This document shows positions 21,744-36,872 of a stretch of DNA of 64,000 nt, piece after piece. The translations under genes were made by a program, and so were the position numbers. Source of the stretch: a virus. Positions within the stretch are counted from its first letter, which is position 1; every line of letters begins with the position of its first letter. The notes beneath the pieces are model-generated. The model had not been told where the DNA came from. It did no database searches and was given only the letters and a program-made list of their open reading frames with translations. The stretch covers positions 1 through 64,000 of the IMG/VR virus record IMGVR_UViG_3300012971_000001; one strand, given 5' to 3'.

Positions 21744-21992
21744 ATGCCTGACATTGACGTGCCCTGCGCCACTTGCGAAACGATAATCAGGGCACACGTC
21801 GCAATGCCGCATATCGTGAACATGTTCTCCGCGACAATGATCGTGGTGGAGCATCCGACGCCGGAAAGATGTCCGGTCTGCAAGACCCTGTTAGTGGTCA
21901 CCGTGGAGGCGGTGCCCAACCTGTTGCTCAGCATGAGAGAGCCGGATGAAGGAGCCAACTACATCCGTACCACAACGACACCGATCCAGTGA
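21744..21992 (+). CDS. Small Zn-ribbon protein
   Basis: CATC ... CPVC. Confidence 0.55.
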   Translation: MPDIDVPCATCETIIRAHVAMPHIVNMFSATMIVVEHPTPERCPVCKTLLVVTVEAVPNLLLSMREPDEGANYIRTTTTPIQ

Positions 21993-21999
21993 GGGGATA

Positions 22000-22497
22000 A
22001 TGACAGATGACAACATCAGAGAATTTCAGCCACTGTACCCGTGGGTATTCGTGCGGGTGCTGCAGAAGGAGCAGACAGTCGGAAAAATAGTCCTGGTAGA
22101 AGGGCCGAAGCAGAACAAGCCCACGCATGAAGGCGTAGTGCTGAAGACGTGGCTGCCGACGACCAAGATCTTCAAGGGCAAGCCGGTCGAGGTGTATTCG
22201 CAGCTACGGCAAGGGCAGCACGTCGTGTTTCCGCACTGGGCAGGGCTGCCGGTAGTCGGCTTTGATGACAAGCACTATCGCATCGTCAAAGAAATAGGAT
22301 GGGAGTCGAGCAACGAAGGCGGGATCTTCGGCTTAATGCAGGACGCAGACGCAGCCGTAGACTCGTTGCAAAGCTGGCTGCTTGCCCACCCGGAAATCGT
22401 GCATCCAGATAAAGTTATTGCATTCGCGCGAGAGATGCTGGAGCGGTTCGTGATAGTCGACCGCGAGAAGCCATCGGTTACCATGTCGGGAGTATGA
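22000..22497 (+). CDS. groES: GroES/Cpn10-like co-chaperonin with C-terminal extension
   Basis: FQPLYPWVFV..., GKIVL, EGVVL, GQHVVFPHWAG pattern. Confidence 0.65.
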   Translation: MTDDNIREFQPLYPWVFVRVLQKEQTVGKIVLVEGPKQNKPTHEGVVLKTWLPTTKIFKGKPVEVYSQLRQGQHVVFPHWAGLPVVGFDDKHYRIVKEIGWESSNEGGIFGLMQDADAAVDSLQSWLLAHPEIVHPDKVIAFAREMLERFVIVDREKPSVTMSGV

Positions 22498-22998: not shown

Positions 22999-23934
22999 AT
23001 GGCTACCGCGACCATCCGCGTTAAGAAGTACTCCGGCCCAGATAGTGCCCTCGTTAAAGACCAGCTCAAGGCGCTGCAGCAGATGCATGCCGCATGGGGC
23101 ATCGAGCAGTTCATGATGGCCCTGTTCTGGATCTTGACCAAGACGAAGGTCACGTTCAAGAGCGGCAAAGTCAGCAGCCTGGTGCCGTTCCGGTTCAACT
23201 GGATACAGCATGATATGGAAAGCAAGCTGGCGCAAAGAAATCTCCTGGTCAAAGCCAGGCAGATCGGCGGCACGACTTACTACTTGCTCAGACGACTGTT
23301 CGTGCCAGCAATACTCGACTACGGCATCGGCAGTTTGCTCATCTCACAGAACAACGAGTATGTGCAGAAGCACTTTGTAATTGCCCGCAGAGCCTATCGG
23401 TACATCGGCGCTGTCGATCCGTACGACACGAGAGAAAACGCATTTAGCATAAGCCTCAAAAATAACCTGCTGCATACCGAAGCATCAAACAGGCGGGAAT
23501 TAATCTTCGATCAATTAGACTCGAGAGTCATCGTAGCGTCAGCGGAAGTAGAAGAGAGCGGCCAGGGCATCACGCTGCATCACATCCTGGCAGATGAGTA
23601 CAGCCGCTGGCCCGGCAGCCCGGCAGATACACTCAGCAACGTAGAAGGCGCACTCGTTCCAGATGGCACCTTGGATAAGAACTGCACAGCCAACGGAGCC
23701 GGTGGGCCTTTCTTCGAGGACGTCATGCGGTGCATCAACACCCCGCAGGACGCAGATGCAAAGCTGCATTTCTATAGCTGGTACTGGACAGATGAGTACA
23801 GAGTCAAGTTATCGCCGAAGGAGGCGGAGGAGCTCAAGAAAGATCTGACCTCTGAAGAAAGAACGCTGATAGCCCGTTTTCACAAAGAGCTGAAGCCTGT
23901 TGCGTGGGTCAAGAATAAGCGAACAATGGTATGA
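22999..23934 (+). CDS. terL: Terminase large subunit, N-terminal ATPase part
   Basis: PFRFNWIQ adenine-binding motif, LVKARQIGGTT Walker A, HILADEYSRW Walker B, TANG motif III. Confidence 0.88.
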   Translation: MATATIRVKKYSGPDSALVKDQLKALQQMHAAWGIEQFMMALFWILTKTKVTFKSGKVSSLVPFRFNWIQHDMESKLAQRNLLVKARQIGGTTYYLLRRLFVPAILDYGIGSLLISQNNEYVQKHFVIARRAYRYIGAVDPYDTRENAFSISLKNNLLHTEASNRRELIFDQLDSRVIVASAEVEESGQGITLHHILADEYSRWPGSPADTLSNVEGALVPDGTLDKNCTANGAGGPFFEDVMRCINTPQDADAKLHFYSWYWTDEYRVKLSPKEAEELKKDLTSEERTLIARFHKELKPVAWVKNKRTMV

Positions 23935-24227
23935 AGCAATCAGAAAAAGAGACAGCACGCCGCACTAAGTATTCCGTGCATATGAGCCGAGCGGAATCGG
24001 GCGTCGGCCGCGGCGATCGTGTTCGGTTCATCGCACATTGTCCCGGCTTTCACTTCGGCGCGATGGGCACGGTGATGCTCGACGGGCTGCGGCTCGGATG
24101 CGTGCGCGTTCGTTTCGACGACGGTAACGAGTTCTGGGTGAATCGCAATTATCTGCAGTTCGCCCATTCGCCGAGTTTGGCTAATTACAACAAGAAGGAA
24201 CTGGAAGCATGTCACGTGAAAAGGTAG
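23931..24227 (+). CDS. Small SH3-like protein inserted between terminase halves
   Basis: GDRVRF...GTV...VRVRFDDG...WV; overlaps both flanking ORFs. Confidence 0.55.
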   Translation: MKQSEKETARRTKYSVHMSRAESGVGRGDRVRFIAHCPGFHFGAMGTVMLDGLRLGCVRVRFDDGNEFWVNRNYLQFAHSPSLANYNKKELEACHVKR

Positions 24228-25091
24228 ACGATGCTGATATCACGCTGGACGATCTGGAGAGGATAGCTTGGCGTAGAAAAGTAAAGTTGCAGCAGCGGGG
24301 CAACTTCGACGAGAAATATCCCTGAAGACGTCCTAACTGCGTTCCTGGTTAGCGGCCTACAGTACTTCAATCGCCAGATCCTGGTTGCCCGCAAGCGAGA
24401 GCTGTTCGGCTACAAGCCACTTAGCATACTTAGAAACGGAGAAGGGGCAATATACAAGTCACGCGTGCCCGGGCGACGTTACCTGATGGGCGCAGACATT
24501 GCCACGGGGCGTACGGTAAGCAGTGAGGAGACGGACTGGAACGCAGCCACGTGCGTAGACCTCGAAACGGGCGAGCAGGTCGCTTCGCTCCACGCGCACA
24601 GCTCGCCAGAAGAATTCGCCTACGACTTAGCAGATGTCGGCAGTTACTACAACAATGCCCTGATAGCAGTAGAGAGAACGGGAGACGGCGGCACGACCGT
24701 ACTTACGCTGAAGGGCGAGTGCAGGTATGGCGCGATCTACAAGCACCGTGACTGGTGGAAGAGAGAAAGGAAAATCGTAGAAGTGGAAGGCTTCCCGACT
24801 ACGGTCAAGACACGGCCGATAGCCTTGAACAAGCTCAACCGCTTTGTCACCGATAGCCCGGAGTTACTGTGGGAAGAAGGTTTCTTCGCAGAAGCACTGA
24901 CCTTCGTGCGGGACGAGAAGGGAAGGCCAGCAGCATCGACCGGAGCGCACGACGATAGAATATCCGCCGGATGGATAGCTTACTATTGCCGCCTGGTCGT
25001 GCTCGGCTACCTCGATCCAATCTCTGTCCCAGCTGAAGGCTACATCCCGTCAGATCGCCTGATCGACGAGGATGAAGCAGAGTCCGAGTAA
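24209..25091 (+). CDS. terL: Terminase large subunit, C-terminal nuclease part, needing a +1 frameshift at 24320-24325
   Basis: ATG 24209 gives ...RIAWRRK...FDEKYP-TGA; +1 frame continues EDVLTAFLVSG..YF into GADIATG, IAVER, GAHDDR (RNase H fold). Confidence 0.8.
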
Positions 25092-25329
25092 CGATCACTG
25101 CCGTTTCTGTATAATGTGCCAATCGGGCTGCGAGGCTCAGAAATTGGCGCAGCAGAGGGGCCGGTAACGGTTGATTCCCTAACTCGAAGACCTTGGGCAC
25201 ATGGACCGGCCCCGACCCAGAGGAAGACGATGTTAGTGATGATAGCGATAGGGCTTATGATCGTCACCGGGGCAGCGATAATCATCGGTGCCTGGATAAC
25301 CAAGACCAGTAATTCCGTAGGAGACCTAG

Positions 25330-25914
25330 ATGAGATGGTTAATAGCTGTTATCGCAACGATAATGCTTTGCGGATGCGCGAAGCACATTCCCGTGCCAAC
25401 GCCGACGGCAGCGCGCACCGTGGTGATCAATTGGACCGCAAGCACTACGCCGGGCGTGAGCTATAACGTGTATCGGGCCACCGTCACGTGCGCCTCGGCG
25501 AGCACCGGAACCAAGCTGAACTCGTCACCGGTCACGGTGCTCACCTACACCGACAGCAACGTCACGGCGGGCACGTATTGTTACTGGGCCACGAGCTATC
25601 TGCAGTCAGCGGCAACGCAGGAATCCGCGCCGAGCAACAAGGCCGAGGTGGTGATTATTGATCAGCCCGCACCACCGCAAAATCTCACCATATCGCCACC
25701 GGCGGTGACCATGCAGACCGGGACCACGCAGCAGTTCACCGCGAATCTGCCCGATGCTGTCTGGTCGATCAGCCCGGTGGACATCGGTAGCATCGACGCA
25801 GCGGGCCTGTACAGAGCACCGGATAAAATACAGGGCAACAACGTGCAGGTGCAAGTAATAGCTCACAGCGGAGTACAGACAGCGACGGCAGCAGTTACGA
25901 TTAGAAAAAATTAA
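25330..25914 (+). CDS. Lipoprotein with Fn3 and Ig-like domains
   Basis: Lipobox MLCGC; WTASTTPGVSYNVYR, YTDSNV..GTY.Y, ESAPSN; GSIDAAGLYRAP. Confidence 0.75.
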   Translation: MRWLIAVIATIMLCGCAKHIPVPTPTAARTVVINWTASTTPGVSYNVYRATVTCASASTGTKLNSSPVTVLTYTDSNVTAGTYCYWATSYLQSAATQESAPSNKAEVVIIDQPAPPQNLTISPPAVTMQTGTTQQFTANLPDAVWSISPVDIGSIDAAGLYRAPDKIQGNNVQVQVIAHSGVQTATAAVTIRKN

Positions 25915-25954
25915 TAATGATGCAGTCCCGATTTTTTTTTTCAAGGAGTTTCCA

Positions 25955-28447
25955 ATGTTCAGAGTAACGACTGCATTGACCGCCTCAGTTATCCTTCTGA
26001 TCGCATCCGGGTGTAAGAAGAAAGCCAAGATCGTCAGTGGCGCGCAGGTGAGTCTTTCGAACCCGTCGGCGAGCGCGATCGATTCGGTAAAAACGCTGGT
26101 GTGGGGATTCAAGAAAGGGGACATAGCGCACTTCCCTAGGCCCGTGTACAACGGCGTGGCGTTGCCGACGTGGCAAGTGGATCAGGTGCGGCGGTGGTCG
26201 GACGGCTCAGTGAAGGTGGCGATCGTCAGCTTTCCGATTTCGTTCGCGGCCAGTCAGGGGAAGATGATCAACTGGGCGGACGATCTGGCACAGTCGAGCA
26301 GTGGCGCCGCCATGACCTCGCAGGAGATGTTGAACTTCATGGGCGGCCGGTGGAACGCTGCGGCGAAGCTGGCGTACAACGGGCTTGGGCAGCAGGTCAG
26401 TGCGCGGACCATGCTGCAGGACGATGTGGACGCGGGGCGGCAGTGCGGGGATCCGCAGAGCAACTGCACGTACTGGCTGCGCGGCCCGGTGGTGACGGAG
26501 ATGGTGCTGCAGGGCCCGCTCGACGATCAGACGAATTTCTTCAAGTACACGATGGGCTTCGACGAGGGGCACGGCATCATCAAGCCGATCCGGCCAGTGA
26601 TCGCGCTGCGTGCTTATCCATCGTGGCCTACCGGCATTCGCGAGGAGGTCCAGATTCGCGCGGACATGGGATCGCGCCTGGAGTTGCTGAATTTCGACTA
26701 CAGCGTCCTGAACGGGCCAGCGCTCACGAACACCGTGTACGCGAAGGCAGGCGTGAGCTTTTACCCGACCACGACGTTTAGGAAAGTCGCATGGGACGGC
26801 GAAGCACCGCCGGTCGTGAACACCGCCAACTACAACGTGGCCTATAAAGCGGACAGCGGCCTGTTCCCGCATTGGGATGCGACGGTCAAGATCGCAAGCG
26901 GCTCGACGCTATACTGGCAGCAGCAGTGGAACAAGAGCGACAAATGCGCCGACCCGACGTCGCATGGGACGATCACGCAGAACTTCAACCTGGTCGGCGG
27001 GCGGTGGGATATCGGGCCAACGACGCAGGCGCACGTGCTGGCCCTGTATGCTCCCGGTCCGATGCGGGTGATCGCGCTGGGCGAGAGCGATTGTTCCGCG
27101 ATGATCCCGTTCCACCTGCTCGACACCAGGGCGGGCACGCAGAAGTTCTGCCCGCGCACTTGCACCGACGCGAACGCCCAGGCGCCGGCCTTTGGCAGGT
27201 TTCCGTCACCGGAAGCACGGCCGACATGGCTCTCCGGCAGGTATGGCATTACGTGGGATTTCGTGGCCGGAGTTGCCGCAGCAGACAAGATCCAACCGAT
27301 CTACTTCCCGCAGAGCTCGAGCGTGAACGGCTGGACGCTCGACGGATCGCATCATCCCGACCTGTGGTACACGGCCTTTTTCCTCTCTGACGGCGAGCGG
27401 TATTACGTCGATGAGATCGTGAACTTCGCGCTCTATCTGCGCGCGGCCGATACCGCCGGGACGCTCGGATATCAGCACCATAACTGGTGGGCAATAAGTC
27501 ATTACAACGGCAGTTATCAAGCACGCGGCTATGCCTGGGGGCATCGCACGCTGGGCGGCGCCGTCACGCTGCTGGATCAGAGCGATCCGCGCTATCAGTT
27601 CCTGACGAAGCACTGGGAATACGACGCGAGAGTCGGCGAGGGCGCGTATGAGATCGTCAACGGCAAGTACCCGCCGGCCGACCCTGCCTGCACGGGCTTC
27701 AACGTCGCGACATCGAACGCGGTCGCCGATATGTGGTGCTGGGGCAAGCTATACGTCGGCCGCTTCCAGAACGCTTCGCTGCCGCAGCCTGCTTTGTGGA
27801 GCAATGCCAACGCGGTACCGCTTCCGGCTCCGCGAAGAGCGGCGAATAAGCCGGAGCTATACCCGTTCGATTGGACTAAGATCGTCGCACTTTACCCGCC
27901 CTGGATGTCGCACTACAAGCAAATCATTGCCACCTGGAACGGCCAGCGCGAACTTGGCTACGACGATGCAGTGCAGCAGCGTGAAGCGACCGGCGAGATG
28001 AGGATGCTGATGTCGCCGGGCCACAATCGCTGGCTGGCGGCCGAGGCGGAATGGCCATCGACGCTGGACGATGGGCATGGAGCGGGCGATGCAGCCAAGC
28101 CGGGGCGCTACATCATAACGACCGATGACTGGCGTAGCGCGTGGCTCAATGGTTTCGTCTCGAATGGCGCCGGTTCGTGCGACGACGCGCCACCGTTCGA
28201 TTTTGATGCCGTGAATTTCTGGAGATGCAGCGGCTACTGGGCCTACAGCTCGTCCACGCACTCACTGGAGACGTACGCATACTCGTTCCGCGCCACGGCC
28301 GCGGGCTGGGTCGGCCTCCAGACGATTGCGCTGGACGGCTCGACACCGATCACTGGCAGGCAGGTGTGGGACTGGGTGAACAGCGACGAGGCAAAGCTGC
28401 GCACGGCGCAGTGGGGCGACGATCCGCGCTATGCCATCGTGCCTTGA
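25955..28447 (+). CDS. Large secreted/lipoprotein, Trp/Tyr-rich, possibly carbohydrate-active
   Basis: AAGGAG RBS; lipobox IASGC; RWSDGSVKVA motif; 830 aa. Confidence 0.7.
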   Translation: MFRVTTALTASVILLIASGCKKKAKIVSGAQVSLSNPSASAIDSVKTLVWGFKKGDIAHFPRPVYNGVALPTWQVDQVRRWSDGSVKVAIVSFPISFAASQGKMINWADDLAQSSSGAAMTSQEMLNFMGGRWNAAAKLAYNGLGQQVSARTMLQDDVDAGRQCGDPQSNCTYWLRGPVVTEMVLQGPLDDQTNFFKYTMGFDEGHGIIKPIRPVIALRAYPSWPTGIREEVQIRADMGSRLELLNFDYSVLNGPALTNTVYAKAGVSFYPTTTFRKVAWDGEAPPVVNTANYNVAYKADSGLFPHWDATVKIASGSTLYWQQQWNKSDKCADPTSHGTITQNFNLVGGRWDIGPTTQAHVLALYAPGPMRVIALGESDCSAMIPFHLLDTRAGTQKFCPRTCTDANAQAPAFGRFPSPEARPTWLSGRYGITWDFVAGVAAADKIQPIYFPQSSSVNGWTLDGSHHPDLWYTAFFLSDGERYYVDEIVNFALYLRAADTAGTLGYQHHNWWAISHYNGSYQARGYAWGHRTLGGAVTLLDQSDPRYQFLTKHWEYDARVGEGAYEIVNGKYPPADPACTGFNVATSNAVADMWCWGKLYVGRFQNASLPQPALWSNANAVPLPAPRRAANKPELYPFDWTKIVALYPPWMSHYKQIIATWNGQRELGYDDAVQQREATGEMRMLMSPGHNRWLAAEAEWPSTLDDGHGAGDAAKPGRYIITTDDWRSAWLNGFVSNGAGSCDDAPPFDFDAVNFWRCSGYWAYSSSTHSLETYAYSFRATAAGWVGLQTIALDGSTPITGRQVWDWVNSDEAKLRTAQWGDDPRYAIVP

Positions 28448-28907
28448 GACTTACTTCGGCCCCATGCAGGCAGGCCACACCAGATAGTTTGTGTCAAGCA
28501 TCGGGAGAAAATTTCCGAAAAAAATCCCGATCTGTGGGTCCACCTGATCGGGTACACTCCACAGTACCGGGAAGCCCCCAACGATGGTGCCTGAGGGACC
28601 TTTGCGGGTGTTTTCGGGTCATATTTTCAATGGTTTAGGGGAGGCAACGTGTTCAGGAATCTACCGGAGCAGGATAATCGGTTTTTCCCTGTAAAAACGC
28701 AGGAAACAGCCAAAAAAGCCGAAAATAAGCCTACAGCAACGCAGGCGTCACAGCATTTGTTGATCACGGAGCCGCCAATTCGCTCGGTTCTGTATGCATC
28801 ACCCTACATTCGGCTAGAAGGACCGCACCCAATGCCGAACTGGTGGTGGCGTTTCTGGTACTGGGCGCTACTTGGCTGGAAATGGAAAATAAATTAGCAG
28901 TTTGGAC

Positions 28908-28936
28908 TTGCGCACAGGTTCAAACCTGTGTAGACT
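28908..28936 (+). promoter_or_regulatory. Palindromic-spacer promoter, copy 7 (perfect 8-bp arms)
   Basis: TTGCGC-17 bp-TAGACT containing CACAGGTT-CA-AACCTGTG; ATG 6 nt downstream. Confidence 0.85.
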
Positions 28937-28942
28937 GGTGAT

Positions 28943-29296
28943 ATGAAGCAGTTACCTCTATTCTCACCACGGCCCTACTCCGGGACGCCGTTGAACACGC
29001 CAAAGGGCGTGTGTCAGCGTTGTGGTGGTCTGGGCCAGGTGGCGGAGATCATCGACGACGAAAAGGCAGAAGCCCTGGTTCCGTGTTACGCGTGCCACGA
29101 ATTCTGCCGGGTCTGCAAGAAGGTGGTCAAGAAAAGCGGCCACGACTGTGTAGCGGCACCCAAGCCGGTGCAGGCGGAAACGACTGCGACCTGCACGTCG
29201 TGCGGCAAGATGGTCCGAATCGACGGTGCCATGCGGACGCAGGACATGCAGTATTACCATCAGGGCTGCCCGGCGCCCGATCGGAAGGCAATTTGA
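28943..29296 (+). CDS. Multi-Zn-finger protein
   Basis: Four CxxC pairs plus H..C. Confidence 0.65.
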   Translation: MKQLPLFSPRPYSGTPLNTPKGVCQRCGGLGQVAEIIDDEKAEALVPCYACHEFCRVCKKVVKKSGHDCVAAPKPVQAETTATCTSCGKMVRIDGAMRTQDMQYYHQGCPAPDRKAI

Positions 29297-29460
29297 AAAT
29301 CCAGTGCACAGCCCACACGCCGCGGAAGGACTTCAAGCACGTGATGTCGTGCATCCGGTGCGGTGCGTTGATCAAGCTGTGTACGTGTGTTCAGGACCGC
29401 GATGGAGATGTCGATCCCTATTGCCGCAAGTGCAGAGGGACAGGATGGATCAAAAGATGA
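29293..29460 (+). CDS. Small Zn-finger protein
   Basis: TTG start overlapping upstream stop; CIRC, CRKCRGTG. Confidence 0.5.
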   Translation: MKIQCTAHTPRKDFKHVMSCIRCGALIKLCTCVQDRDGDVDPYCRKCRGTGWIKR

Positions 29461-29945
29461 GCTCACGAGTCGAATTAACAGAAAAAGAAAAATTGGAGAT
29501 CGAACAGCTGAAGGCGCTACCGCTGCCCAGAAAGCTGGAAGGCGAGTGCGCCGGCTGCCATCGCGGCATCCCGGTGGGTTACTTCGCGCTGGTCACGAAG
29601 TGGAAAACGCGGACCTGGACGGGCGGGACGAAGGTCATGGTGCCCGCCGAGCAGTGGTGCCAGGACTGCAGGCCGGTCGCAGCAGGCAAGAGTCCCAGCA
29701 AAAACGGCAGCAGCAGCAAGAGCCACCCGGTGATCGAGAACAAGGTCAGCAACACGCCGTTGAACGAGCTGCTGGCAAAAAAGTTGAAGACGGTCATGTC
29801 CAAAGAAAAGGCACATTCGCCGCGGTGGATGATGAAGCGTCTGGGTATCAACCCGGAGCAGAAGCAGCAGGTGGTCGACACGCTGAAGAAGCTCTACAGC
29901 GATAAGCAGATCGAGTTCGAAGACGGGCAGTGGAAATTGGTGTAA
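29457..29945 (+). CDS. Zn-ribbon plus winged-HTH protein
   Basis: CAGC..CQDC; C-terminal helix-helix-helix-wing pattern ending IEFEDGQWKLV. Confidence 0.6.
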   Translation: MSSRVELTEKEKLEIEQLKALPLPRKLEGECAGCHRGIPVGYFALVTKWKTRTWTGGTKVMVPAEQWCQDCRPVAAGKSPSKNGSSSKSHPVIENKVSNTPLNELLAKKLKTVMSKEKAHSPRWMMKRLGINPEQKQQVVDTLKKLYSDKQIEFEDGQWKLV

Positions 29946-29947
29946 CG

Positions 29948-30094
29948 ATGCTCAAGAAGATGATGAAGAAAATCGAGAAAGCCGGTTTCGAGATCACCGG
30001 CCGCAGCAGACGGGGATTTCAGGTTGCGGGGTACATCGACGTCCTGCAGTATTGCTGGCACGAACAGTCGTCTGAGCAAGTAAAAGTGTGTTAG
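29948..30094 (+). CDS. Small ORF whose 3' end is antisense to terL
   Basis: MLKKMMKKIEKAGFEITG... 48 aa, starts 2 nt after upstream stop. Confidence 0.4.
   Translation: MLKKMMKKIEKAGFEITGRSRRGFQVAGYIDVLQYCWHEQSSEQVKVC
30048..30082. repeat. 35-bp exact inverted copy of terL 23281-23315
   Basis: Reverse complement TACTTGCTCAGACGACTGTTCGTGCCAGCAATACT is identical to 23281-23315. Confidence 0.95.
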
Positions 30095-30111
30095 CATGGA
30101 AAGTAGTGACG

Positions 30112-30204
30112 TGGCATTTCCAGCCAGGGCGTCGAAAGACACTGCAAGGACCAGCGCGGTAGACTGTGGAAGCGAACCTGAAGCTGCCCTGGCTGGAAAT
30201 GCCA
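30112..30204 (+). ncRNA. Structured element closed by a 19-bp perfect stem
   Basis: TGGCATTTCCAGCCAGGGC (30112-30130) pairs with GCCCTGGCTGGAAATGCCA (30186-30204); inner GTC-GAAA-GAC hairpin. Confidence 0.55.
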
Positions 30205-30231
30205 TGAAGATTGGTTACACTGTAGTTTCTC

Positions 30232-30939
30232 GTGACACTCGACTTCAGAGGCGCAGAGCAACTGTGGCATGCACTGGCTGGAGTCCTGATTGCGCAGCAT
30301 AACTCTGCTTATTTTTCCACCCCGCATGGAGAAGTAGCCAAATTGCTCCGGCGCTTTCGGTTGTATTCCGGTCTGGTTGCCGAGCCGACGATTCCGCTAG
30401 AATTTCACCTGCCAGATAGCAATGACGATGTCAGCATCGTAGAATCCATCGCCGACGCTTCGGGTCTACCCTACACCACCACGATGCCGCGGTTGATCCT
30501 GCCTGAGGGACCGTACAGCGACGGAAATCACATTGTTATCGCATTGGGGGACATACATCCCGACTTCGAGCTTCCGGTGTCGGCGTTGCGGGCAATACTG
30601 CGGCTGGCCAAGACTTATACGGGCAAGGTATATATGATCGGGCTGGGCAAGCGCCCGGAAGTAGCATTGATGGAAAATGAAATCCTGTTTCAGCTGAGAT
30701 GCCCCGAAAAGGAAAAACTGTTGTCCACAGCCAAGCTGGTGATCGGCACGCCCAATGACTGGACTTGGCTAGCATCTGCTTGGCAGAAGAAAATCGTGGT
30801 CCTGTATGCCGACAGCCAGCCGATGAGGAAATGGTTTCCGTTCGCCGATGACAACTTCGGCAGAGTCCTGTTCAGCCATAATAACCTGGACATAGCCAAC
30901 TTAGTAGCTCAGGTGCGGGTGTTGATCAAGATGTTGTGA
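30232..30939 (+). CDS. GT9-like glycosyltransferase
   Basis: LSTAKLVIGTPNDWTWLASAWQKKIVVLY resembles the GT9 C-terminal motif. Confidence 0.55.
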   Translation: MTLDFRGAEQLWHALAGVLIAQHNSAYFSTPHGEVAKLLRRFRLYSGLVAEPTIPLEFHLPDSNDDVSIVESIADASGLPYTTTMPRLILPEGPYSDGNHIVIALGDIHPDFELPVSALRAILRLAKTYTGKVYMIGLGKRPEVALMENEILFQLRCPEKEKLLSTAKLVIGTPNDWTWLASAWQKKIVVLYADSQPMRKWFPFADDNFGRVLFSHNNLDIANLVAQVRVLIKML

Positions 30940-30949
30940 GGAAAATAGA

Positions 30950-31276
30950 ATGACTGATGAGATGATGAAGCTGCTGAAGAAGATAGGAGAAGGCATCAGC
31001 CAAGAATTACTGCCGAAGATGAAGGCATCAGAGTTCATAATGCTTCTTGCCGATCCAGAGGGAGCAGAGGATGTATTCTTGCTGCTGCAAGCAGGTGCAG
31101 CGTTAATGCTTAACAAGCCGATCATCGTCGTAGCATTGAATGGATACAGAGTTCCCTACAAGCTACGCATGATATCCGAAGCCGTGATCGAGACGAACGA
31201 GTTTGATGATGCAGCAAAGGAAAAGGTGCGGGCTGCATTAGCCAAGATCGTGGCCAGAAAGGCAGCAATGCAATAA
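30950..31276 (+). CDS. Hypothetical protein (nucleoside deoxyribosyltransferase-like fold?)
   Basis: LQAGAALMLNKPIIVV resembles E.G.A....KPI. Confidence 0.5.
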   Translation: MTDEMMKLLKKIGEGISQELLPKMKASEFIMLLADPEGAEDVFLLLQAGAALMLNKPIIVVALNGYRVPYKLRMISEAVIETNEFDDAAKEKVRAALAKIVARKAAMQ

Positions 31277-32913: not shown

Positions 32914-33414
32914 GTGACGATGAGAAAGATTCCAGATACACTAGCGGCACAGCAGGCTCGGTTTTCGAAGTTTGTTGATAAGAGTTCGTCGCCTAAGGGC
33001 TGTTGGCTTTGGACCGGATCTAAGGATCATTCTGGCCATGGTCACATAAAAATGAAGATGGCAGATGGCCATTTTGAATTTCAGGCTCATCGCATTGCAC
33101 ATATCTGGTGGATAGGACCTATTCCAGACGGTTTGTATGTTTGCCATAAACGCATTGATGTGTGCGGCAATGCAGCTTGCGCAAACCCTGCACATCTTTA
33201 TATTGGAAACAGCTTTGATAACTTCGCTGATGCAGTAGCTGACGGGCGCCGGCGCCATAACGCTGCACTAACCGAACAGCAGATTGGGCTAATAAAAGCA
33301 ATGTATACTGCCAACATTGTGCATGGAGCTATTTCTGCTATAGCACGAAGGCTAAACCTCAGCAGAGCTACCGTTAGTGCTGTCATAACAGGCAGGATAC
33401 GGAACCGTATATGA
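32914..33414 (+). CDS. HNH homing endonuclease (copy 2)
   Basis: VDKSSSPKGCWLWTG, AHRIA, CANPAHL; TTGACA upstream. Confidence 0.88.
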   Translation: MTMRKIPDTLAAQQARFSKFVDKSSSPKGCWLWTGSKDHSGHGHIKMKMADGHFEFQAHRIAHIWWIGPIPDGLYVCHKRIDVCGNAACANPAHLYIGNSFDNFADAVADGRRRHNAALTEQQIGLIKAMYTANIVHGAISAIARRLNLSRATVSAVITGRIRNRI

Positions 33415-36400
33415 TTGAAATTTTGCGGCGAATGCATAACAGCTTTCGTGCCCGGTTACTCAAGCACTACCGGACGAAGGAAGTCGTGCGGGTGTTTCAG
33501 ATATCCCACGCACAGGAACTGAAGGATTTGCCATATCATCAGTGGCCCGCCGTGCAGGCGCGGCAGACGCAGGAGATAGCAGCAGTGAAGGCCGGGCGCC
33601 TGGATATCGTAGATAGAAAATCCTGGGCATGGCCGTTCATCCCAGCTACGATCAACCGTCTGGCAACGCCGCTGATGAAAGCGACGCCTTACGCACTGCG
33701 GCGTATGTCTCGCACGCCTGTGCCGCGCAGAGCCATCAACCTGATTAAAAACGCTTTGATCGGGCAGGCCTGGGATGTGCAGCCGATAGATGGCGTAGCA
33801 GTACTTGACTCAGATAAGGAGCGGGATGCCCGCATACGGATCGCCAAGAAAATATTCACCCATCCGAATAATGAAGATAGCTTTCAGACGTGGATGGAGC
33901 AGGGGCTGGAGGACTTACTCATCTTCGGCTCATTCTCAACGGAGCTGTCACTTACGCCTGACCCGGAACGCCCGATAAAAATGTGGGCAGTGAATACAGA
34001 GAGCATTCGCATATTTCCCAACTGGGCAGAATCGCTGTCGCAGGACTATCCTCACTACGCGCAGATGACCGGATTAAAAGGCGAGCGCGGAGCCGTTTTG
34101 TTCTACGATGACGAATTAATGTACGTGCGTGACAACATAGCCACGGATACACCATTCGGCACGGGCAAGATGGAAGTCGGATTTCGCTCGATCACAGATT
34201 TTCTGGGCGTGCAGGACATGAGCGGCAGAGCAGGCACGGATCAAGTCCACAAAACGTGGTTGTGGTGGGAGCAGCCACAATGTTTTGACGATCAAACGGA
34301 AGTGTTGACAACGCGGGGATGGGTGCCATGGTCTGGTACTTTAGATACCGATTGCTTTGCTACTCGTAGTGCTGATGGAAAGTTCGAGTGGCAGCAATGC
34401 ACAGCTTTGCATAAGAAGCACTACAAGGGCAATTTGGTCCAGTTTCAGAATCGTAATCTTCGCATACAAGTGACGCCGAATCATCGAATGTTTGGGCGTT
34501 ACAAGTATTCGGGCAGACAGGATGGGAAGCATATCTATTATTTCGGTGACGAGCAGTTTGCGCAAGCGTGCGATGTGATTAGTACGGTTGCCAATAAACC
34601 TGGAAAGGGCAGTAAAATATCCGTTGGCTCAGATATAGCACGGATGACTACACGAAAGCCAAAATGTCACATTGATAGGCCAGATCCGAATTGCAAGCGA
34701 TGTAGAAATCGCCTGGTCATGCGAAGGTACTATGATCGCATATATCAGGGCATAGCGCCTGGCCAGTCTAGCAAGAAAACCCCTGCCGACTTTGTTATTC
34801 CAGCTAGATCTAAGTGGGTAGACGGCGTGCTGCCGGCAGAAAAATTTACAGTAGGCAAATGGGAGTTTGATTGGCAAGATTGGGCAGCATTCCTTGGAAT
34901 ATGGATGGCTGAGGGTTCTACTAGCGGCAACATGCATGCAGCACGCTTAAAGAAAAAGCAAGGGGTAAAAGAGCCTGGTTATATAGCTGCGATAGCAGCA
35001 TCAGCAGATGGAAATGCTTTCGCTCATCAGAAGAAGCATTGCACTGATATCCATACGTTTAAGGTAATCGTGGCTCAGAGCAGTAAGGCCAATTCAGAGA
35101 AGTATCAGGCTATTAAGTCCTTGATGGACAAGATGAACTTGCCTTACTACACGCACGGCAATGCCTTTACTTTTACTTGCCGAGACATTTGGGAACATCT
35201 CGCACAGTTTGGAAATAAATATACCAAGTGGGTGCCAGACTACATTAAGGACGCGCCTTCTGATGTTATCAGCACGTTTGTGCATTGGGCTTGTATAGGT
35301 GATGGCTGGCTTAGGGGAAATAAGGGTGCCAGAGGATACTTCACGACCAGTCGAAAACTAGCTGACGATCTGCAAGAACTATTTCAGAAGATAGGTAGCA
35401 GTGCCAGTATTGGTCGATCGAATGCGCATGTTGACAAGCATGGACGCTGCATATCACCTGGCTATTCCGTGATAGAACAGACGACTGAAGAGATCAGCTT
35501 AATGCCTAGCGCTTATAGGCCTGGTCGAGGGATGTGCAAGCCGCAGCTAGTGCCATATGATGGGATGGTGTACTGTGCGACAGTGCCAAATAGCACTCTA
35601 TACTGTCGCCGAAATGGCTATGCATTTTGGAGTGGGAATTCCGAGGCAGCCTATCAAATCGTGCGCAGGCATATCCAGAACGAGCTAGAAGGGCAGGCAA
35701 AGATATCGATCGTCGGCGGGATGAAGAAGCCAGAAGTCATCGAGGTGCAGCCGACGGTCGAATCCGACTTACTGTTGGGCTGGCAGGAAGTGCTGATCCG
35801 GATGATCGGCAACGCATTCGACTTATCGGCGATGGCACTTGGCGTGGAACACGACGTGAACAGAGCAGTGGGTGAAGTGCTAGACGACCGTGACCACAGA
35901 TCGGCCGTGGTCCCGATGGGCAAGCGCCTGGCAGAAGCACTTACGACGCGCGTCCTACACAACAAATTGCATTGGTACGATATCGAGTTCGTCTACCTGA
36001 ATTTGGACGACCCGGATATGGTCACCAAGCTCGACATGCTGACGCGGATGTACAGCGCCAATGCCGAGACGCCAAACGGAATCAGAATCGGCATGGGCAA
36101 GCAGCCGCTGGATAGCCCATTCGCAGACCTTACGCAGTTTGAATGCATGTTGCTCAACGTGCAGGCGCAGGTGTACGCCCAGGAAGAAGCCGCCAAGACT
36201 CAGCAGGAAATGCAGCCGCCAGCGCCGCCTGCAGGACCGGGCGGTCCCAGTGGTCCCGGGCAGGGGCCGGGGACGACGCCTGCGGTCAATGGACCGCCCC
36301 AAAAATCGATCCCACCGGGGCAGGCGCCGGGGAAAAAGGGCCTACCACCGGGGCAACAGCCGCCGACTACAGCACCCGGCGGTCCTGGCGGGCAGAAACC

Positions 36401-36872
36401 ATTAAAGATAAAGCCCAAAGTTGCCTCGCCAACCAAGCTCAGCCTTCCGAAATTCCCTATCTCCGGCACTGCATATACCGCCATGGAACTCGCGGAAATG
36501 CCGGTGGATCAGCTTCGCAACCTGTTCGACCAGGAGCAGATGCCGCCGGTCAAAAATGTCATGCACGACATGGAAAATCAGGAGCCGGGCATCCTCGAAC
36601 AGCTGTCGGAAGAAACGAAGGAATTCTTCGAAGAGCGCAAGCAAAAGGAACAGGCGCAGCATCGCGTCAAGCCGATAGATCCGAAAATCATCAAGCAGTG
36701 GGCCAAGGAACAGCAGGACCGCCTGAAGGAGCACAGCAAGCGTACCGCGTCCTATTCGGAATTCGTTGAGAAACGCGGTCAGCAAGCCATGAAGCCCGGC
36801 GGCCCGGGATCAAAGGGCATAATCCCCAAGGCAGGCAAGCCGGGGCAGATTAATCCGATAGTCAAGCAATAG
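33411..36872 (+). CDS. Portal protein with intein and Pro/Gly-rich C-terminal extension
   Basis: Portal-like extein (HPN....F...LEDLL, YAQ, ELMYV, GTG, AFDLS...LG); lies upstream of protease and capsid. Confidence 0.82.
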   Translation: MIEILRRMHNSFRARLLKHYRTKEVVRVFQISHAQELKDLPYHQWPAVQARQTQEIAAVKAGRLDIVDRKSWAWPFIPATINRLATPLMKATPYALRRMSRTPVPRRAINLIKNALIGQAWDVQPIDGVAVLDSDKERDARIRIAKKIFTHPNNEDSFQTWMEQGLEDLLIFGSFSTELSLTPDPERPIKMWAVNTESIRIFPNWAESLSQDYPHYAQMTGLKGERGAVLFYDDELMYVRDNIATDTPFGTGKMEVGFRSITDFLGVQDMSGRAGTDQVHKTWLWWEQPQCFDDQTEVLTTRGWVPWSGTLDTDCFATRSADGKFEWQQCTALHKKHYKGNLVQFQNRNLRIQVTPNHRMFGRYKYSGRQDGKHIYYFGDEQFAQACDVISTVANKPGKGSKISVGSDIARMTTRKPKCHIDRPDPNCKRCRNRLVMRRYYDRIYQGIAPGQSSKKTPADFVIPARSKWVDGVLPAEKFTVGKWEFDWQDWAAFLGIWMAEGSTSGNMHAARLKKKQGVKEPGYIAAIAASADGNAFAHQKKHCTDIHTFKVIVAQSSKANSEKYQAIKSLMDKMNLPYYTHGNAFTFTCRDIWEHLAQFGNKYTKWVPDYIKDAPSDVISTFVHWACIGDGWLRGNKGARGYFTTSRKLADDLQELFQKIGSSASIGRSNAHVDKHGRCISPGYSVIEQTTEEISLMPSAYRPGRGMCKPQLVPYDGMVYCATVPNSTLYCRRNGYAFWSGNSEAAYQIVRRHIQNELEGQAKISIVGGMKKPEVIEVQPTVESDLLLGWQEVLIRMIGNAFDLSAMALGVEHDVNRAVGEVLDDRDHRSAVVPMGKRLAEALTTRVLHNKLHWYDIEFVYLNLDDPDMVTKLDMLTRMYSANAETPNGIRIGMGKQPLDSPFADLTQFECMLLNVQAQVYAQEEAAKTQQEMQPPAPPAGPGGPSGPGQGPGTTPAVNGPPQKSIPPGQAPGKKGLPPGQQPPTTAPGGPGGQKPLKIKPKVASPTKLSLPKFPISGTAYTAMELAEMPVDQLRNLFDQEQMPPVKNVMHDMENQEPGILEQLSEETKEFFEERKQKEQAQHRVKPIDPKIIKQWAKEQQDRLKEHSKRTASYSEFVEKRGQQAMKPGGPGSKGIIPKAGKPGQINPIVKQ
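34281..35639 (+). mobile_element. Intein with LAGLIDADG endonuclease
   Basis: Starts CFDDQTEVLT; block B VTPNHRM; FLGIWMAEG and WACIGDG; YDGMVYCATVPN; ends WSGN with +1 Ser. Confidence 0.9.

Follow-up and report, generated by a model that had tools for sequence, protein, structure and literature searches.

The window analysed here covers the first 64 kb of an IMG/VR virus record of 117,450 bp, bounded by direct terminal repeats of 123 nt, and it contains a 35-nt stretch that is a backward copy of a piece of the phage's own large terminase gene, terL. The copy is real, discrete, unique and derived from terL, and the slot in which it lies is specific to this lineage. How can a phage come to carry such a short piece of its packaging gene in reverse orientation? 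It may well be a recent scar of fragment capture or of template switching in a dispensable slot, a reading that we hold with middling confidence and in which the repair mechanism and the absence of selection on the copy are what we infer. The phage is uncultured, and its DNA is found in soil-metagenome runs.

The copy and its donor gene

The features needed at this point are the two arms of the repeat and the gene from which the copy was taken.

30048-30082, + strand: inverted 35-nt copy; a + strand transcript of it would be antisense to terL mRNA
23281-23315, + strand: donor arm, codons 95-106 (YLLRRLFVPAIL) of the TerL N-terminal ORF, assigned by sequence match
22999-23934, + strand: TerL N-terminal (ATPase) ORF of 311 aa, the donor gene, assigned by translation, homologues, tblastn and Walker-A-like residues
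24209-25091, + strand: TerL C-terminal (nuclease) part, which needs a +1 shift, assigned by PHROG terminase hits

The stretch 30048-30082 is the reverse complement of 23281-23315 with 35 matches in 35 positions, and 6732 nt separate the two arms, just as the initial annotation had it (an exact reverse complement about 6.7 kb away). In 117,450 bp, about 6e-12 exact inverted matches of 35 nt are expected by chance. Apart from the 123-nt terminal repeat, the pair is the longest exact repeat of the whole genome, and the next-longest ones, of 23 nt, are in repetitive genes. Weak extra similarity on one flank of the arms had also been described, but it is not significant against 2000 shuffles: the alignment score of the right flank is reached by 445 of them, and that of the left flank is below the scores of 1998. 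Because the flanks of the two arms have no significant similarity, the copy is to be regarded as discrete.

Could such a copy be a product of assembly or of chimeric reads? Logan contigs, which are built from 31-letter words (k=31), were compared with the phage genome in several DNA runs. In run X1, which is possibly the source sample of the record and thus not independent, contigs stop at 23310 and 30077 and resume at 23286 and 30053. These break positions match exactly what is predicted at k=31, and therefore indicate a 35-nt repeat in two copies. In the same run the 35-mer forms a unitig of its own with a depth of 37.2, double that of its flanks (18.6, 15.1, 18.3 and 19.2), and the 31-mers spanning the junctions are present at full depth. 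The break on the terL side, at 23310, is also found in run X2, from a different sample and a different study, and run X5, from a third sample, provides junction-containing contigs (29340-30062 and 30048-30352) with 0 differences from the genome. With the junctions supported by three samples, the doubled depth of the 35-mer and an N count of zero in the 117,450-bp genome, the copy is genuine, and an assembly or chimeric-read artefact can practically be dismissed. The variant carrying the copy is fixed in contigs from at least three samples; thus, it is at least tolerated.

The donor had been taken for the terminase ATPase gene from its letters alone, and homology searches back this. For the N-terminal ORF, 92 homologues with lengths of about 300 aa are found, and tblastn against cultured phages yields annotated large terminases in 37 records, at 25-28% identity and with a best E of 1e-8. 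The donor arm starts two codons past a Walker-A-like RQIGGTT, so that its earlier placement just after the Walker A codons is correct, and K85, R87, Q88, G90, T92 and T93 of the Walker-A-like region are invariant in 26 homologues. The donor ORF (22999-23934) is intact and conserved. Throughout the TerL family the peptide YLLRRLFVPAIL is conserved, which makes terL the donor and the stretch at 30048 its copy; the underlying nucleotides are not conserved. In the closest relative (L004, with 85% TerL identity), 11 of the 35 bases of the donor arm differ, as do 52 of the 201 bases around it. The two arms in our phage show 0 differences from each other; the copy therefore follows the terL of its own lineage, and is either recent or kept identical.

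The architecture of the terminase itself deserves a few words. The large terminase (22999-25091; 1042-3151 in L004) is divided over three ORFs: one for the ATPase, with about 300 aa, a small one, and one for the nuclease. The ATPase form of about 300 aa is the norm among the 92 homologues. With PHROG, the ORF at 24465-25091 gives matches to terminase families. The frame of 24209 is stopped by TAT-CCC-TGA (24317-24328), and the +1 frame runs on to 25091; the closest relative has an intact nuclease ORF of 291 aa with CCG-GAA at the shift point. The extra base at this site is reproduced by the X1 contig 23286-26988, and the frame break reflects either a gene that is broken or a +1 shift that is programmed. 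Just 5′ of the terminase, at 21946-22497, lies a GroES-like gene (Cpn10, E 4.2e-6).

Do related phages have the copy? Profile searches of viral and metagenome contigs with an alignment of the TerL N-terminal part gave 79 loci, 74 of them distinct, with 753,583 nt; a 5453-bp contig of P0003 (84% identity) stands outside this set. An exact inverted repeat of at least 17 nt with one arm in terL occurs in none of the 74 distinct loci. The sole distant inverted repeat of at least 17 nt is a 22-nt pair in L047, located outside terL. In L006, a 16-nt pair between the terL nuclease part and the homologue of the 235-aa gene does not exceed chance, since 1.2 pairs of this kind are expected across all loci. 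The TerL homologues listed include relatives with 50-62% identity on long contigs, and the nearest relatives, apart from near-identical contigs, are those at 84-85%, none having been found between 85% and about 99% TerL identity. The exact 35-mer has no match in the viral contigs, a megablast search with 10 kb of the phage has none among cultured phages, and searches with each of the flanking-gene proteins singly detected no related locus. The initial annotation had named two findings that together would speak against it, namely relatives without the copy and a copy that is not transcribed; the first of the two is what is seen here, as the closest relative is devoid of the whole slot, including a second copy of the 35-mer, and the copy is found in none of the 74 loci. 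Among the relatives, the distance from terL to the 235-aa gene differs by kilobases, and the assembled orientation is collinear with L004 on both sides of the segment.

The slot that received the copy

The copy lies within a short variable region between two genes, and most of that region is occupied by a small ORF and a hairpin.

29946-30231, + strand: lineage-specific 285-nt slot from the Zn-ribbon gene (29226-29945) to the 235-aa gene (30232-30939), recognized by comparison with L004
29948-30094, + strand: ORFan of 48 aa (ORF48), in which the copy and a 12-nt tail make up the last 16 codons
30110-30206, + strand: multi-branch hairpin with a 21-bp closing stem (19 bp perfect) and no U-tract after it, found by folding

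The Zn-ribbon gene and the 235-aa gene on the two sides of the slot are both conserved. At the same position L004 has an unrelated acidic ORF of 82-95 aa, with neither the terL copy nor the hairpin. Among 5.8 billion proteins, ORF48 finds only itself as a homologue (lengths of 26-84 considered). Its codons 2-33 score as coding, with 0.47, a value that is reached by 2% of out-of-frame windows, and the copied part has a codon score of -0.11. The coding signal thus ends where the copy starts, as if the insert had cut a small gene. Against Pfam at E<=10, ORF48 has only a match to DNA_pol_B_palm at 0.084, which we judged meaningless. A resemblance of its N-terminus to HicA/YcfA proteins was also considered and is not borne out.

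The hairpin, of which a 19-bp stem about 30 nt downstream of the copy had been recognized, is real. The arms of the perfect 19-bp stem are at 30112-30130 and 30186-30204, and the stem starts 29 nt past the copy. The whole structure has a predicted energy of -54.6 kcal/mol with a z of -6.2, and none of 200 shuffles folds equally well. Over 28000-31000, no Rfam family is matched at E<=1. In 9 relatives, a perfect stem of at least 10 bp was sought within 500 nt 5′ of the homologue of the 235-aa gene and was found in none. One hairpin arm together with its following bases has no match in genome contigs, and the two arms with a gap between them have none in viral contigs.

A patchwork of pieces from the phage's own genome was not detected in the slot. 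The best other match of the slot in its own genome, 19 of 20 nt at 80679-80698 with 32.2 bits, is at chance level, since 56 of 400 random windows reach it, one of these 400 being the slot itself and the sole window to reach 50 bits.

Two possible readings: a scar of repair or a newborn antisense RNA

According to the reading that we prefer, 35 bp of the phage's own terL (codons 95-106) would have been copied once, recently and in reverse. The landing site would be a dispensable and fast-turning-over slot between two conserved genes. The likeliest route would be capture of a DNA fragment, or a template switch by a polymerase, during repair of a double-strand break, and the copy would then be a mutational scar and no evolved device. 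Sharp edges and a lack of flank homology are expected of a captured fragment. Here the copy is discrete and sharp-ended, an intact donor is present elsewhere, and the acceptor site is variable and dispensable, all of which are features of fragment capture. Moreover, the setting is break-prone: the genome has a gene with HNH and HTH hits, a probable intein in the portal protein, and a homologue of Ku (PF02735, E 2.6e-41) at 1096-1881, which is the first gene after the left-end promoter.

It is to be noted that in the bacterium Sinorhizobium meliloti pieces of DNA can be captured at breaks by Ku/LigD end joining, whichever their orientation (PMC6379672). The insert described there resembles ours in being discrete, in having no flank homology and in its free orientation, and our phage carries Ku. 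However, the usual insertions by non-homologous end joining in that study are of a few nt, and the only piece shown to be captured was an electroporated resistance cassette, which entered an I-SceI cut in a bacterial chromosome (PMC6379672), while here 35 bp of own DNA are concerned and the phage has no ligase. Indeed, an ATP-dependent ligase and a LigD primase-polymerase are both absent from the phage genome. Ku may serve for end protection alone, as described for Mu Gam (PMC1378119), and this counts against a repair scar. So does the placement of the copy, which, judged from the sequence, looks purposeful: antisense, in an early-type operon, and 29 nt before a hairpin with a z of -6.2. If the copy is a scar, the phage genome, which abounds in homing endonucleases and encodes Ku, would offer a clean natural example of a short insertion templated by the genome itself, and the case would also warn that spacer-sized self-matches need not be guides.

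The main alternative is that the copy acts as a newborn trans-acting antisense RNA against terL mRNA. To consider it, the transcription context has to be described.

28901-28946, + strand: promoter-like motif TTTGGACTTGCGCAC-palindrome-TAGACT with an ATG 6 nt later (leaderless start), recognized from 7 copies in the genome

The consensus of this motif is TTyGGACTTGCGCAC, a palindrome as the spacer and TAnACT as the -10-like box, with an ATG 6-7 nt on. Its seven copies are at 1057, 6100, 6883, 28904, 114901, 116193 and 116993; six of them are near the genome ends, before small genes and the Ku homologue. The copy at 28904 is located 1.1 kb 5′ of the inverted copy and is kept in L004 before the homologous gene. 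The seven copies suggest leaderless early mRNAs under one regulator, their assignment to an early class being presumptive. Nearly all long ORFs of the genome are on the + strand, and from 28944 to 30048 no terminator-like site is predicted on that strand. The statement of the initial annotation that the copy is antisense to terL and lies on the transcript expected from a promoter at 28908 is therefore in line with what is found, namely a promoter-like motif 1.1 kb 5′ and no terminator-like site between.

By this explanation, the promoter at 28904 would transcribe the two Zn-ribbon genes, ORF48 and the copy, and the hairpin would end the RNA or stabilise its 3′ end. The duplex with terL mRNA would be cut by RNase III of the host or would block ribosomes, and thus the packaging ATPase would be held back or throttled early in infection. 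The complementarity is 35/35 between co-oriented transcripts. The predicted RNA duplex between the copy and terL mRNA has -67.6 kcal/mol, to be set against predicted opening costs of 10.8 and 11.9 kcal/mol for the two RNA sites. The accessibility of the two sites is ordinary (33rd and 46th percentile), and their more accessible ends face each other. According to these models, pairing is physically likely if both RNAs co-occur. Further points in favour are the promoter-like motif, which is common to the six sites at the genome ends and is kept in the closest relative, the run without a terminator-like site followed by a stable hairpin 29 nt downstream of the copy, and the fixation of the variant in several samples. 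A split terL that needs a +1 shift would also fit a tight dosing of the enzyme. A second multi-branch hairpin of like build is present at 116002-116119 (16002-16119 in L083), with a 16-bp perfect stem, -71.6 kcal/mol and a z of -6.8, where it ends the unit directly 5′ of the promoter at 116193.

Against such a regulator stands first of all its absence elsewhere: neither the closest relative nor any of the 74 distinct related loci has it. The target is in the middle of the ORF (codons 95-106 of 311) and is neither a translation start nor a control site. The architecture is not repeated at the second hairpin, beside which no antisense match rises above a background of 150 windows, one of these, at 61.9 bits, possibly overlapping one of the two arms. 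The part of ORF48 that precedes the copy looks coding, so that ribosomes may cover the copy as well, and RNase III is not encoded by the phage. The claim that an antisense or guide RNA silences terL therefore stands in part: the context and the strong predicted pairing speak for it, and the relatives without the copy speak against it. What keeps an antisense RNA in view, as possible but doubtful, is the orientation of the copy together with the promoter, the hairpin and the duplex strength. Even if the copy is a repair scar, its antisense position in a co-oriented operon means that incidental pairing of its RNA with terL mRNA may occur.

These two explanations may also be joined. It is rather unlikely that a regulator has been caught at its birth. 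In this case a piece of terL, captured backwards where an early operon has its 3′ end and right before a stabilising hairpin, would now yield an early antisense RNA; by a perfect duplex of this RNA with terL mRNA, the packaging ATPase would be kept off or low until late.

Phage RNAs that invite comparison are the c4 RNA of phages P1 and P7 and the CI RNA of satellite P4, which are encoded on the same strand as their targets and are cut from an operon transcript. Their seeds are short and located at ribosome-binding or termination sites, and these RNAs are conserved and regulate immunity genes. Our candidate RNA resembles them in being a same-strand antisense RNA encoded within an operon transcript and acting on messages of its own phage; unlike them, it would use a single perfect match of 35 nt in the middle of the terL ORF that is not conserved, and the RNA itself is a prediction. 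As for the hairpin, phage T7 has RNase III processing hairpins between its early genes. The hairpin described here is likewise long, has no U-tract and is in a co-oriented early-type operon, and its cleavage could leave a stable 3′ end; in contrast to those of T7, it has no sequence or family match, is lineage-specific, and its cleavage is hypothetical.

In the literature searched, no report of a terminase being targeted by a trans-encoded antisense RNA came up. If the antisense explanation is true, the phage times or doses its terminase by RNA pairing, and capture of a gene fragment would have given rise to a trans-acting antisense RNA in a single step. Control of phage DNA packaging by a trans-encoded antisense RNA would then be described for the first time, and the case would show how such RNAs originate.

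Less likely readings: guide RNAs, binding sites and invertible segments

What other roles can be thought of for a 35-nt perfect self-match? A length of 35 nt is within the sizes of CRISPR spacers, and virus-borne mini-CRISPR arrays exist. The copy might be a lone spacer or guide RNA that the phage carries, or else a fragment of prespacer size that adaptation enzymes of the host integrated in the wrong place. Its spacer-like size and sharp edges, together with the existence of guide RNAs borne by phages, point in this direction. On the other hand, no flanking direct repeat was found, in agreement with the earlier remark that no CRISPR repeats flank the copy, and there is neither a CRISPR repeat nor a tracrRNA family at E<=1. 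Cas1, reverse transcriptase and RNase III are absent from the phage genome. A 25-nt core of the 35-mer has 0 hits in the contig collections of metagenomes and species genomes, from which near-identical records may be missing, and therefore no matching CRISPR spacer was found in them. A perfect self-match would also be suicidal for a cutting guide. The viral sgRNAs described in a preprint target the promoter of host cas9 and not the phage (bioRxiv 10.64898/2026.06.01.729453). Compared with virus-borne guides, our copy is alike in that a spacer-sized match is followed by a structured RNA region and is carried by a phage, and it is unlike them in having no repeat, anti-repeat or known scaffold, in matching the phage itself, and in having as its target neither the host cas9 promoter nor a rival virus. 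An object related to CRISPR is accordingly very unlikely.

It is also conceivable that the 35 bp are a duplicated DNA-binding site, to which one phage protein binds at both places. An exact duplicate has the look of a second operator, and orientation is irrelevant for many such sites. However, the terL arm is not conserved in L004, where it has 11 changes in 35 bases, against 52 in 201 around it, the second copy is missing there, and the 35-mer is unlike the palindrome of the promoter-operator motif, which makes such a duplication highly improbable.

Finally, the initial annotation had offered one end of an invertible segment of 6.7 kb, whose flipping would break terL, as an alternative to a guide RNA. 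In Mu (G/Gin), P1 (C/Cin) and Salmonella (Hin), inverted repeats of about 26-35 bp bound invertible segments of a few kb. Like these, our arms are short, exact inverted repeats (35 bp, a size like that of known invertase sites) that bound a few-kb segment of a phage. No flipped junctions were reported among the contigs, whose 31-letter words are too short to bridge the 35-nt arms, so that a minority of flipped genomes would escape notice. Unlike the segments of Gin, Cin and Hin, however, this one comes with no invertase gene: serine (PF00239) and tyrosine (PF00589) recombinases have 0 matches in the whole genome, the controls being positive. All long ORFs within the segment are on the + strand, so that there are no alternative genes on the opposite strand, and a flip would split the ORF of the essential ATPase at codons 95-106 with no alternative gene to take its place. 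Since, in addition, the assembled orientation agrees with that of L004 on both sides and no inversion joints are reported, an invertible segment is scarcely credible, and this alternative of the initial annotation finds no support.

Several further genes near the slot are worth recording. A 166-aa gene at 32914-33414 has weak hits to HNH_3 and HTH_22; its homologues are found between the terL halves in L011, 5′ of terL in L046 and after the terL nuclease part in L049, and it looks like a mobile endonuclease gene. The portal protein (33411-36872; PF04860, E 6.6e-19) has an insert of about 450 aa at residues 292-743, which is missing in L004, L011 and L023 and has a weak LAGLIDADG_3 hit (E 0.0027); this insert is probably an intein. 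The 830-aa gene at 25955-28447 varies between samples: a contig from X5 differs at 53 of 554 bases (26026-26579), and contigs from X1 and X2 diverge into unlike sequence at 26816/27340 and at 28017/28049. This gene may encode a host-recognition protein with swapped segments.
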